Positions 22,443-25,379 of a stretch of DNA of 64,000 nt are shown one piece after another. The position numbers were made by a program, and so were the translations under genes. The notes beneath the pieces were generated by a model. That model was not told the origin of the DNA. It worked only from the letters and a program-made list of their open reading frames with translations, and made no database searches. Positions within the stretch are counted from its first letter, which is position 1. Each line of letters opens with the position of its first letter. The stretch covers positions 1,358 through 65,357 of the forward strand of contig JBAZSJ010000026.1 in assembly GCA_041662485.1 (NCBI GenBank), in the 5' to 3' direction. The DNA is from Opitutaceae bacterium (GTDB lineage: Bacteria; Verrucomicrobiota; Verrucomicrobiia; Opitutales; Opitutaceae).

Positions 22443-25379
22443 ATGACCTCAGCCGAGATCCGCCAGTCCTTCCTCGATTTCTTCGCTTCCCAAGGCCACA
22501 CGATCGTCCCGTCGTCGTCCCTCCTGCCCGACTCCCCCGGACTCCTCTTCACCAACGCCGGCATGAACCAGTTCGTGCCCATTTTCCTCGGTGACAAAGC
22601 CGCCGACGTCTCCACATGGGCCGGCGCCCGCCCCGCCAAGGACACCCGCGCCGCCGACACCCAGAAATGCATCCGCGCCGGCGGCAAACACAACGACCTC
22701 GAGGACGTCGGCTACGACACCTACCACCACACCCTCTTCGAGATGCTCGGCAACTGGTCCTTCGGCGACTACTTCAAAAAAGAGTCGCTCACCTGGGGCT
22801 GGCATTTGTTGACGAAAGTCTGGGGCATCCCCGCCAAGCGTCTCTACGCCACCGTCTACGCCCCCAAGCCCGGCGACCCCTCCGAATTCGACACCGAGGC
22901 CAACGCAATCTGGACCGAGCTCTTCACCGCCGCCGGCCTCGACCCCGCCCTCCACATCGTCCACGGCAACCGCAAAGACAACTTCTGGCAGATGGGCGAC
23001 ACCGGCCCCTGCGGCCCCTGCTCCGAAATCCATTTCAACCTCCTTCCCTCGGACGACGAAGTCGAAGGCCGCAAGGGCGTAAACTCCAGCAGCCCGCGCT
23101 GCATCGAAATCTGGAACCACGTCTTCATTCAGTTCAACGCCAACGCCGACGGCACCTTCTCCCCGCTCGCCGCCAAGCACGTTGACACCGGCATGGGCTT
23201 CGAACGCGTCGCCGGCATCCACGCCACGACGAAAGGTTTTACGGACTTCTCCCCCGAGCCCTCCAACTACAACGCCGACGTATTCGCCCCGTTGTTCGCC
23301 AAGGTCACTGCCCTCTCGGGCAAGACCTACACCGGCACCGTCCCGACCAAGCGCGAAGGCCTCAGCGAACAAGAGAACATCGACATCGCTTTCCGCGTGT
23401 TGGCCGATCACGCCCGCACGATCTCGTGCAGCATCGCCGACGGCATCATGCCCGGCAACGAAGGCCGCAACTACGTCATCCGCCGCATCCTCCGCCGCGG
23501 CATTCTTTACGGCACGAAGCTCGGCCTCAAAACCGGCTTCTTCGAACAACTCGTCGCCCCCGTCGTCGAATCCCTCGGCAAAGTCTTCCCCGAACTCGTC
23601 GAACGCCAGGACATCATCCGCCGCGTAATCAAGAGCGAGGAAGAGTCCTTTGGCCGCACGCTAGATAAGGGTTTAGCAATTTTTGTTTCTGAAACTCAAA
23701 ATCCGGAGTCACTGAAGGAACGTCTTTTGACCCGTCGCACGATGTTCACGCCTGAGGGCGGCTCTGTAATTAATGGAAAAAAAATCACCAGCGAAGGCAT
23801 CGATGTTTTAGTCCGAGTCCAGCCTACCGAGATTGAGCAGACATTCCATGTTGTCATCGAGTATTCAGAACTTGATCGCAAAGATGTGAAGAACTTCGCG
23901 CGAGACATTACGCGGCACATTCAAATCCATCGCGAAAGTCTCACGAAATCGGTTTCAGGTGCCCTAGCTTTCCAGCTCTACGACACCTACGGCTTCCCTC
24001 TCGACATGACGCAGCTCCTCGCCACCGAGCGCGGACTCACCGTGGACACCGCCGAGTTCGAGCGTCTCATGGACGAGCAGCGCAAACGCGGCCAAGCCTC
24101 CACCAAGAAAACCATCGTCGTCGCCGCCACCGAAGGCTCCGACACCACCGAGGTCACGCCCACCGTCTTCGTCGGCTACGAAAAGCTCACCGCCGAAACC
24201 ACGCTCGTCGACATCGTCAAAACCGAGAAAGACACCTACCTCGTCTTCGCCGAAACCCCCTTCTACGCCGAAATGGGCGGCCAGCTCGGTGACACCGGCG
24301 ACGCCCTCGTCTCCGGCCACCTCGTCCACATCACCGACACCGTGAAGGACAAGTCCGGCCGCTACCTCCATCGGATCGCCTCCGAATGTAGGAGCGAGCT
24401 TGCTCGCGATGTTCGCGCCACGCTCTCCGTCAACGCCACCCGTCGCCGCGCCATCAACCGCCACCACACCGCGACCCACCTCCTCCACTGGGCCTTAAGA
24501 AAAGTCCTCGGCACGCATGTCCGCCAGGCCGGCTCCCTCAACGCCCCCGACCGCCTCCGCTTCGACTTCGCCCACTTCGAGGCCGTCACGCCCGCCCAGC
24601 TCCGCGAGATCGAAGGCCTCGTCAACGAACGCGTCCTCGAAAACGCCGCCGTCGCCTCCTACGAAACCGAGTTCGACAAAAAGCCCGAAGGCACCCTCGC
24701 GTTCTTCGGCGAGAAATACGGCAAGACCGTCCGCGTCGTGGACACCGGCGGCTACAGCCGCGAACTCTGCGGCGGCACCCACGTCTCCACCACCGGTGAA
24801 ATCGGCCTCGTTAAAATCATCTCCGAAGGCGCCGTCGCCGCCGGCACCCGCCGTCTCGAAGCCGTCGCCGGCCAGGCCGCCTACGACCACGTTTCCTCCA
24901 TCGAGCACCAACTCGCCGTCACCGCCGCGAAGATCGGCGTGCCCGTGAGCCAGCTCGACCTCAAACTCGACTCCCTCCTCGCCCACAAGGCCGAGGCCGA
25001 GAAGAAGCTCAAGGTCTTCGAGCAACGCGCCATCTCCGCCCTCGCCAACGACCTCGCCTTCAAGGCCGTGACCAAGGACGGACTCCCGCACGTCTCCGCC
25101 GTCGTCACCGTCGAGGCCCCCGAGGCCCTGCGTGAAATCGGCTCCCAAGTCCTCGCCCGTCTGGGCGGCGAAGGCGTGGTCGTCATCGGCGCCGCCTTCG
25201 GCCCCGACAAACTCTCCCTCGTCGCCTTCTGTTCGCCCGCCGCGATCAAGGCCGGCCACCAGGCCGGCAAGATCATCGCCGCGATCACCCCGAAGCTCGG
25301 CGGCAAAGGCGGCGGCAAGCCCGACTTCGCCATGGGCGGCGGCAAGGACGTCGCCAAGCTCGCCGAAGTCCTCGGCTGA
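22443..25379 (+). CDS. alaS: Alanine--tRNA ligase with a large in-frame insertion
   Basis: FTNAGMNQF, QKCIR, TLFEMLGNWSFGDYFK, DTGMGFER, LYDTYGFP, HHTATHLLH, ELCGGTH and GGKGGG motifs. Confidence 0.98.
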   Translation: MTSAEIRQSFLDFFASQGHTIVPSSSLLPDSPGLLFTNAGMNQFVPIFLGDKAADVSTWAGARPAKDTRAADTQKCIRAGGKHNDLEDVGYDTYHHTLFEMLGNWSFGDYFKKESLTWGWHLLTKVWGIPAKRLYATVYAPKPGDPSEFDTEANAIWTELFTAAGLDPALHIVHGNRKDNFWQMGDTGPCGPCSEIHFNLLPSDDEVEGRKGVNSSSPRCIEIWNHVFIQFNANADGTFSPLAAKHVDTGMGFERVAGIHATTKGFTDFSPEPSNYNADVFAPLFAKVTALSGKTYTGTVPTKREGLSEQENIDIAFRVLADHARTISCSIADGIMPGNEGRNYVIRRILRRGILYGTKLGLKTGFFEQLVAPVVESLGKVFPELVERQDIIRRVIKSEEESFGRTLDKGLAIFVSETQNPESLKERLLTRRTMFTPEGGSVINGKKITSEGIDVLVRVQPTEIEQTFHVVIEYSELDRKDVKNFARDITRHIQIHRESLTKSVSGALAFQLYDTYGFPLDMTQLLATERGLTVDTAEFERLMDEQRKRGQASTKKTIVVAATEGSDTTEVTPTVFVGYEKLTAETTLVDIVKTEKDTYLVFAETPFYAEMGGQLGDTGDALVSGHLVHITDTVKDKSGRYLHRIASECRSELARDVRATLSVNATRRRAINRHHTATHLLHWALRKVLGTHVRQAGSLNAPDRLRFDFAHFEAVTPAQLREIEGLVNERVLENAAVASYETEFDKKPEGTLAFFGEKYGKTVRVVDTGGYSRELCGGTHVSTTGEIGLVKIISEGAVAAGTRRLEAVAGQAAYDHVSSIEHQLAVTAAKIGVPVSQLDLKLDSLLAHKAEAEKKLKVFEQRAISALANDLAFKAVTKDGLPHVSAVVTVEAPEALREIGSQVLARLGGEGVVVIGAAFGPDKLSLVAFCSPAAIKAGHQAGKIIAAITPKLGGKGGGKPDFAMGGGKDVAKLAEVLG
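24384..24415 (+). repeat. REP family A copy embedded in frame in alaS
   Basis: gaatgtaggagcgagcttgctcgcgatgttcg; 25 nt are identical to intergenic 38082-38106. Confidence 0.9.

Follow-up and report, generated by a model that had tools for sequence, protein, structure and literature searches.

The penA gene of Neisseria and the pbp2x gene of Streptococcus are mosaic genes produced by interspecies homologous recombination. The SI domains of bacterial RNA polymerase and the insertion modules of other aminoacyl-tRNA synthetases (aaRSs) are stable insertions of whole clades, and the HsdS target-recognition domains of type I restriction systems are exchangeable specificity modules flanked by conserved anchors. 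Here we analyse a low-GC, in-frame tract in alaS, the gene for alanyl-tRNA synthetase (AlaRS), on a 64,000-nucleotide (nt) stretch of DNA from an Opitutaceae bacterium (GenBank assembly GCA_041662485.1, contig JBAZSJ010000026.1, positions 1,358 to 65,357 of the forward strand), referred to below as the window. AlaRS is a textbook enzyme: it recognises tRNA-Ala by one base pair, G3:U70, in what is the classic "second genetic code". In the E. coli enzyme, mutational and modelling work identifies Tyr399, Asp400 and Gly403 as minor-groove readers of G3:U70 and Asn303 as the residue that reads U70 from the major groove (PMC6055181). That paper cites Naganuma et al. for Mid2, the tRNA-recognition subdomain with the G3:U70 readers.

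The alaS tract resembles each of these systems in part. Like the mosaic genes, it is a divergent, compositionally distinct block inside a near-identical essential gene, with junctions in conserved sequence. Unlike theirs, the block does not replace residues by diverged counterparts: a single loop takes at least 40 unrelated inserts (30-230 amino acids (aa)), of which this is one, and no drug selection is known. As in the lineage-specific insertions, a domain predicted to fold independently occupies a surface loop and leaves the catalytic core intact. Those insertions, however, mark large clades stably, whereas the insert described here, which we call type A, has a single carrier among 24 genomes of its genus and is swapped for unrelated ones in alleles that are 95-99% identical elsewhere. 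The arrangement of unrelated variable modules between conserved anchor blocks recalls HsdS, but this genome has no silent cassettes or invertase, and the modules sit in a housekeeping synthetase of the cytoplasm. Within AlaRS itself, the insert sits in a Mid2 loop 10 residues upstream of the equivalents of Tyr399/Asp400, where none of the AlaRS structures found by a PDB sequence search (E. coli, human, A. aeolicus, A. fulgidus) has anything. The likeness to the AlaRS-like tRNA-recognition (ATL) domain of bacterial GlyRS beta lies at the level of the fold, in that a homologous fold took whole-domain insertions, although those are ancient and fixed (bioRxiv 10.1101/2023.05.29.542759). Our literature search found no description of the AlaRS loop beside the G3:U70 reader as an insertion hotspot with unrelated, recombining, AT-rich modules.

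A low-GC tract in the tRNA-recognition region of AlaRS

The gene, the tract and the conserved sequence around it have the following positions in the window.

22443 to 25379, forward strand: alaS, alanyl-tRNA synthetase, 978 aa, defined by its open reading frame (ORF) and by Pfam matches to PF01411, PF07973 and PF02272.
23457 to 23459, forward strand: codon of Asn339, intact, the equivalent of E. coli Asn303 (major-groove reader of U70), placed by the HMMER offset to PDB 3HXU, with the role taken from PMC6055181.
23634 to 23660, forward strand: left anchor AGCGAGGAAGAGTCCTTTGGCCGCACG (SEEESFGRT), near-identical DNA among Opitutaceae alaS genes in DNA alignments; the putatively foreign tract begins right behind it.
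23661 to 23969, forward strand: apparently swapped low-GC tract, L407 to A509, 103 codons comprising recoded flank codons and the insert, delimited by GC content, third-codon-position GC content (GC3), allele divergence and flank residues in common with the homologue G421.
23685 to 23954, forward strand: type A insert proper, V415 to V504, 90 aa, a predicted helical domain, from AlphaFold2 and homologue alignment.
23970 to 23999, forward strand: right anchor TTCCAGCTCTACGACACCTACGGCTTCCCT (FQLYDTYGFP), which holds Tyr513-Asp514 (23979-23984) and Gly517, from the alignment to E. coli AlaRS; its DNA is near-identical among alleles.

The protein is a full-length bacterial AlaRS of class II, with catalytic/tRNA-recognition, editing-associated and C-terminal DHHA1-like domains (PF01411 tRNA-synt_2c, 5e-166, 553.8 bits; PF07973 tRNA_SAD, 56.7 bits; PF02272 DHHA1, 27.6 bits; all above the cut-offs). 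The insert cuts the PF01411 match into two stretches. All the G3:U70 readers are kept: in a HMMER alignment to E. coli AlaRS (PDB 3HXU), Tyr513, Asp514 and Gly517 correspond to Tyr399, Asp400 and Gly403, and Asn339 to Asn303. The end of the insert lies 10 residues upstream of Asp514. The genome contains a single match to alaS, its sole alanyl-tRNA synthetase gene, and the two tRNA-Ala genes found in it both have the standard G3:U70. Because alaS is single copy and these tRNA-Ala genes carry G3:U70, the insert-bearing enzyme must be functional.

An earlier annotation made from the letters alone (the sequence-only reading) had described an in-frame cassette that adds roughly 78 residues to AlaRS, and had counted its GC content by hand. 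Its figures hold: positions 23661-23970 contain 143 G or C in 310 nt (46.1%), the same value as the hand count, compared with 63.4% for the whole window. The spacing between TLDKGLAIF (aa 406-414) and SGALAFQLYDTYGFP (aa 505 onwards) is exactly the 90 residues given there. The E. coli value, about 12 in that reading, is 12 between GLALL and DGETAF by alignment to 3HXU, where HMMER leaves only residues 381-387 unmatched. The extra length relative to E. coli is thus roughly 78-80 residues. In relatives from the same genus, as in E. coli, the spacing from TLDKGLAIF to SGALAF is about 10-12 residues, with NKAAVGASVI as the loop of the genus, and a wider measure (...GL to LYD) gives 100 residues here against 19-20 in the same-genus relatives.

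Windows of 150 nt reach 46-50% GC only across 23600-23974. GC3 is about 0.48 in the tract and 0.85-0.9 in the remainder of alaS; by windows of 30 codons it is 0.40-0.57 in the tract and 0.77-0.97 elsewhere in the gene. Such values are rare in this genome, where GC3 at or below 0.5 occurs in 0.5% of 22,125 non-overlapping 40-codon windows from 1,913 long ORFs of high GC3. The compositional break extends into the conserved flanking codons on both sides, as the sequence-only reading had noted. On the left, L407-F414 is encoded by CTA GAT AAG GGT TTA GCA ATT TTT, where relatives have CTC GAT CGC GGT CTC GCC ATC TTC; on the right, S505-A509 is encoded by TCA GGT GCC CTA GCT, where genus relatives use C- or G-ending codons. 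The reading frame runs intact through all 978 aa. The 270-nt insert is open in this frame, compared with only 0.6% of its shuffles, and the five other frames are all closed. The insert is open in frame and conserved, and lies in a single-copy gene.

Exchange between alaS alleles

The closest allele found (P0002) has a DNA identity of about 95% beyond the tract but cannot be aligned within it, where it holds an unrelated insert of 78 aa. The two genes differ at 0-7 positions per 60 nt along most of their length and at 34-39 per 60 nt across 23643-23940, so that a divergent tract lies between near-identical flanks as in a mosaic gene. The same junction blocks delimit the difference between G421, which carries type A, and P0098, which has no insert. 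These two genes are separated by branch lengths of 0.003 and 0.01 and are about 98% identical over 2.7 kb (0-6 differences per 60 nt), with the exception of one tract that begins directly after ...GGCCGCACGCT and stops at CTCTACGACACC... Further near-identical backbones with different or no inserts are P0029/P0034/P0018, P0070/P0075 and P0084/P0116. The proposal that the cassette was swapped, and did not arise by drift, is supported by both the comparison to P0002 and that of G421 with P0098.

A host tree was built from AlaRS with the site removed. In this tree our gene lies deep within a Rariglobus-like clade, nearest to P0002-P0006 (branch lengths 0.03-0.06), whose inserts are unrelated and differ from one allele to the next. 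All five remaining carriers of type A fall into the other major clade.

In the window, the junctions fall after ...GGCCGCACG (23660) and before TTCCAGCTCTACGAC (23970), within the conserved-block pair GGCCGCACG and CTCTACGAC. The anchor blocks encode SEEESFGRT and (F)xLYDTYGFP, and their DNA is nearly invariant across the family; they probably serve as homology anchors for recombination between alaS alleles. Because the tract holds correctly placed AlaRS residues, its donor must be another alaS. Judged from these alignments, the tract is a swapped cassette at a hypervariable loop, with its exchange junctions in conserved alaS sequence. A perfect 10-nt inverted repeat (23620-23629 and 23907-23916; GCCGCGTAAT and ATTACGCGGC) has one arm to the left of the tract and the other inside it; it lies off the junctions and is probably due to chance.

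We propose that 23661-23969 represents one allele of a cassette-like, hypervariable alaS site, the surface loop of Mid2 ahead of the helix bearing Tyr513-Asp514. The tract was apparently imported from another Opitutaceae alaS allele via homologous recombination, with crossovers in conserved nucleotide blocks (on the left ...GAAGAGTCCTTTGGCCGCACG, on the right CTCTACGACACCTACGGCTTCCC...). Crossovers at these positions would lead the imported tract to carry a few recoded conserved codons on each side together with the 90-aa insert. The insert would then be translated within the only AlaRS of the cell and fold as a small independent helical domain. We hold this account of the origin and anatomy of the tract to be very likely, and consider the explanation as a whole likely.

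A second divergent patch in alaS was seen at 24361-24420 (aa 640-660), where 32 of 60 nt differ from P0002, compared with 0-7 elsewhere. Its GC3 is not lowered, and it looks like a variable loop ahead of the RRRAINRHH motif.

What occupies the loop in relatives

We catalogued the alaS site across Opitutaceae and other Verrucomicrobiota, using a match split in two with an insert-less query as the sign of a long insert at the loop. Long inserts were present in 43 of 131 Opitutaceae species genomes and in 6 of 86 from other Verrucomicrobiota; the short loop is kept in the remaining 88 Opitutaceae genomes. Each of the 40 relatives searched has one alaS. Judging from the source names of matching proteins, the genus is probably Rariglobus. 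In 22 of 23 genomes of the same genus with an alaS match, the protein match stops at about residue 415-425 and resumes at about 500-505; one genome, G012, seemed to match end to end, but only through a different insert of similar length. Within the genus the site has two states, either a conserved baseline of 19-20 residues (for example ...FNKAAVGASVISGALAF..., GC3 0.6-0.85) or unrelated inserts of 26-95 residues (GC3 0.30-0.57). Rariglobus hedericola has the short loop. Among the 120 best AlaRS matches in a collection of 5.8 billion protein clusters, the length of the site ranges from 19 to 231 residues.

DNA was retrieved for most of the long-insert loci, and inserts unrelated by BLAST were counted as separate families. 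This census resolved 56 distinct long inserts into 40 unrelated families beside the 19-20-residue baseline loop, which substantiates the suggestion of a hypervariable insertion site. The GC3 of all 56 inserts is at or below that of their flanks, with a median difference of -0.21 and 66% of them below -0.15. Singleton inserts mostly show a strong AT shift. Close cassette pairs also exist, for example in the P0005/P0011 group. Inserts common to several genera or species, namely a REP-associated tyrosine transposase (RAYT) domain, a 110-aa family and a 75-aa family, tend to host-like GC3.

The RAYT domain is complete, about 200 aa long and in frame at the AlaRS loop in at least 6 genomes from at least 5 genera (L042 (P0068), L055, L056, L101, L103 and L104), with host-like GC3. 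By visual inspection it retains the HUH motif and the Tyr of YxxxNP, and the P0068 insert scores 90.1 bits against NCBIfam NF047646 (cut-off 80). Membership in RAYT thus applies to inserts of these other genomes; for the insert in the window there is no match of this kind. Inserts of the 110-117-aa family (L089, L106, L108, P0110) and of the 75-aa family (L052, L086, L097, L100) have the GC3 of their hosts, and each family spans several genera or species. Gly-rich, low-complexity inserts (GDGTGFGGG...GSGDGSG) are found in L079, L102 and P0047, and the site therefore also tolerates disordered-looking segments.

A transposase domain at the same site, together with an in-frame, AT-rich and patchily distributed insert in an essential gene, would be compatible with a selfish in-frame element, such as an intein remnant, an insertion resembling a Rickettsia palindromic element (RPE) or a miniature inverted-repeat transposable element (MITE), or the target of a diversity-generating retroelement (DGR). 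The junctions, however, lie in alaS codons, so that the donor was another alaS, and we regard a selfish element as highly improbable. The individual candidates were each rejected. For an intein, there is no Hint/intein Pfam match and the ends lack the Cys/Ser...His-Asn pattern (the insert starts at V415 and ends ...TKSV before SG). For a repeat of the RPE or MITE type, a DNA search of the genome matched the insert alone, and the junctions have no terminal inverted or direct repeats. For a DGR target, the 5.28-Mb assembly holds no second (template) copy; no search for a reverse transcriptase was made. Rfam returned nothing relevant for the tract as an RNA element.

The type A insert family

Homologues of type A occupy the same codon position in Oleiharenicola lentus (P0054, G129), on a Joint Genome Institute (JGI) metagenome contig (P0060) and in G165, G044 and G421. 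A five-member profile found type A in 5 of 401 Opitutaceae species genomes, each of another genus, and in none outside Opitutaceae in a 400-genome sample of Verrucomicrobiota; one further copy is on the metagenome contig. None of the 23 other genomes of the same genus has it, which makes the bacterium studied here the only carrier among 24, and the insert is accordingly no trait common to all relatives. The homologues align nearly without gaps, with 15 columns invariant among five of them and the motifs RLLxRRTxF and DxTRHIxIH. Their pairwise identity stays at 31-44% however similar the flanks are (57-91% identical in the segments next to the insert, 73-83% in the remaining protein). G421 is the exception: its tract is the closest found to that of the window (63% aa and 60% nt identity), and the flank residues LDKGL, FVSET and AFQ are common to the two genes and missing from genus relatives.

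The uniform divergence of type A could reflect an old, saturated family, and hence an ancient, vertically inherited trait of Opitutaceae AlaRS that diverges fast and was repeatedly lost or replaced. Against this stand its presence in 1 of 24 genomes of the genus and in 5 of 401 of the family, each time in another genus, the near-identical backbones with and without type A, the sharp junctions in recoded flank codons and the well-conserved baseline loop of the genus. We judge ancient vertical inheritance to be very improbable. An assembly or binning artefact that joined foreign DNA into alaS might be suspected in a draft genome of 111 contigs. The frame, however, is unbroken, the recoded flanks encode the proper AlaRS residues on either side, and five further independent assemblies, one of them an isolate genome with a contig of 1.1 Mb, have homologous inserts at exactly this position. 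An artefact is hardly credible.

The search for free-standing copies and copies in other hosts, which the sequence-only reading had proposed, returned none. phmmer on 1.84 billion representative proteins gave only a spurious repeat protein (P0121), in a scan whose cluster representatives may hide insert-bearing AlaRS members. A profile search for type A as a small protein found none, and tblastn of 50,697 phage records found none. Scans of genome and metagenome contigs recovered only O. lentus and the JGI contig again, plus a match in a Nanopelagicus metagenome-assembled genome that proved false, as it lies antisense to an ABC permease gene. A region-restricted word search of the 5.8 billion protein clusters missed known homologues, and its negative is weak. 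For statements of absence we rely chiefly on profile searches covering 801 genomes and on the HMMER scan of representatives.

Predicted structure and identity of the insert

AlphaFold2, run on the insert with a three-sequence alignment, predicts four helices (residues 7-18, 36-45, 50-60 and 65-88) and a short hairpin, with a predicted local distance difference test score (pLDDT) of 79.4 and a predicted template-modelling score (pTM) of 0.71. A model of the full-length enzyme has the same insert helices. As had been proposed, we searched the insert model with Foldseek and found nothing significant among PDB folds (best E = 2.9, probability at most 0.28) or among viral folds (BFVD). There is no significant Pfam or PDB sequence-profile match, and the E. 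coli, human, A. aeolicus and A. fulgidus AlaRS chains match the flanks only, so the insert corresponds to no described AlaRS subdomain. These searches, together with those for free-standing copies, support the suggestion of an undescribed small domain. Type A is thus predicted to be a small helical domain without known relative.

The Foldseek matches raise the possibility that type A is an HRDC-like accessory domain that binds nucleic acid and gives AlaRS an additional contact with tRNA-Ala. They include HRDC domains (Rrp6, exosome component 10) and Rpb4/RpoF, at query-normalised template-modelling (TM) scores of 0.26-0.54. One of the five type A members touches the Pfam HRDC family (PF00570, E = 0.013), the insert has conserved basic residues (among them R13, R17, K33 and R77), and it adjoins the acceptor-stem reader. 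None of the structural matches is significant, however. hhalign against the HRDC profile of the genome's own RecQ gives a probability of 4%, and the HRDC hidden Markov model (HMM) misses the insert in a whole-genome search. With all four tests (Pfam, hhalign, Foldseek and whole-genome HMM) non-significant, type A was not assigned to PF00570. The net charge of type A is near zero (-1 to +2), and unrelated inserts, including the Gly-rich ones, fill the same site. Across insert families, too, the net charge is about zero and there is no common theme in charge or composition, which makes a general tRNA-binding role unlikely. We consider the HRDC-like reading improbable.

Origin of the tract and variation at the site

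Some observations weigh against the proposed account of the tract. Type A is AT-shifted in every host, with insert GC3 of 0.41-0.65 in all carriers and flanks mostly at 0.6-0.9 (in G165, just 0.42 downstream of the insert). The difference ranges from -0.09 to -0.42, and such a uniform shift is not easily explained by a simple recent import followed by amelioration. No near-identical donor of the cassette was found among 5.8 billion protein clusters, 401 genomes of the family and the contig scans, so that either the transfer is not demonstrably recent or the donor is unsampled. The full-length AlphaFold2 model is poor overall (pLDDT 71, pTM 0.41), and the domain therefore cannot be placed relative to the tRNA.

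The persistent AT-richness may stem from an unsampled AT-rich donor pool, from decay under AT-biased mutation or from selection on the mRNA. Such decay might act on a rare cassette, for which GC-biased gene conversion would find no partner. Insert families that are widely shared have host-like GC3, as expected if they ameliorate with age; type A, scattered and low in GC3 throughout, is not easily reconciled with this.

Import by recombination would account for how the tract arrived. Why the site varies is addressed by a compatible reading, an arms race, in which an antagonist, for instance a toxin or a protein encoded by a phage, docks onto this side of Mid2 and imposes negative frequency-dependent selection, and in which a swap of the surface module would block docking beside the acceptor-stem site of the tRNA. 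Proteins with an aaRS as their target are known: HipA acts on GluRS, HipT on TrpRS, and the vs gene product of phage T4 on ValRS. Turnover at the site far outpaces divergence of the host gene, with near-identical backbones that carry different or no inserts. The 40 unrelated families within one bacterial family, the patchy distribution of type A over genera and the position 10 residues from the G3:U70 readers also favour an arms race. On the other side, no antagonist is known or was found, the short loop is retained by 88 of 131 species, and the net charge and composition of the inserts have no common theme. We regard an arms race as rather unlikely, but as the main alternative, since fast turnover and a deep cassette pool leave room for diversifying selection.

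A broader form of this idea, which we think doubtful, would make the AlaRS Mid2 loop a true cassette locus. A deep pool of unrelated, persistently AT-rich modules, intact RAYT domains included, would circulate via the two anchors, with its diversity kept by frequency-dependent selection. The agent docking beside the tRNA-Ala identity reader could then be a phage factor, a toxin or a competing tRNA-like RNA, and the locus would be an intracellular analogue of antigenic variation.

For the recombined allele proposed here, the role of the domain is a separate matter. Most likely it would be a tolerated, selectively maintained surface appendage outside catalysis that at most modulates the binding of tRNA or of a partner; for this we see an even chance.

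Neighbouring sequence and other low-GC patches

Immediately 3' of alaS lies an ORF of 3,576 aa (25632-36362, forward strand) whose N-terminal region is subtilisin-like (S8) and which contains repeated blocks of cadherin/PQQ-like type. On the contig of the closest allele (L121), alaS is followed by this neighbour as well.

A genome-wide scan for low GC3 returned mostly wrong-frame or intergenic artefacts. Outside the window, it also pointed to a GatB-like ORF (contig C14, frame of 509 aa) with a patch of about 63 codons (codons ~368-431, GC3 0.43). By sequence this ORF encodes the B subunit of an Asp/Glu-tRNA amidotransferase and, with AlaRS, would make two tRNA-handling enzymes that have a low-GC patch in frame. 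The patch presumably adds roughly 25-30 residues relative to a typical GatB, just ahead of the YqeY-like tail. Contigs C55 and C10, likewise outside the window, have an ORF resembling heavy-metal P-type ATPases with a 41-codon patch (GC3 0.39) and a DNA methyltransferase-like ORF with a 178-codon block (GC3 0.47).

Significance

We place the alaS cassette with two known kinds of variation, insertion modules specific to a lineage and genes turned mosaic by recombination. Should the modules be neutral passengers, the loop would be a natural permissive site for grafting domains into an essential enzyme, and a clean system in which to follow the birth and amelioration of new protein domains. If they are selected, an interaction not yet known would take place at this face of AlaRS. 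In either case, the consistent AT shift of the inserts in GC-rich hosts bears on what keeps bacterial GC content high; a donor pool rich in AT, escape from biased gene conversion and selection are the candidates.

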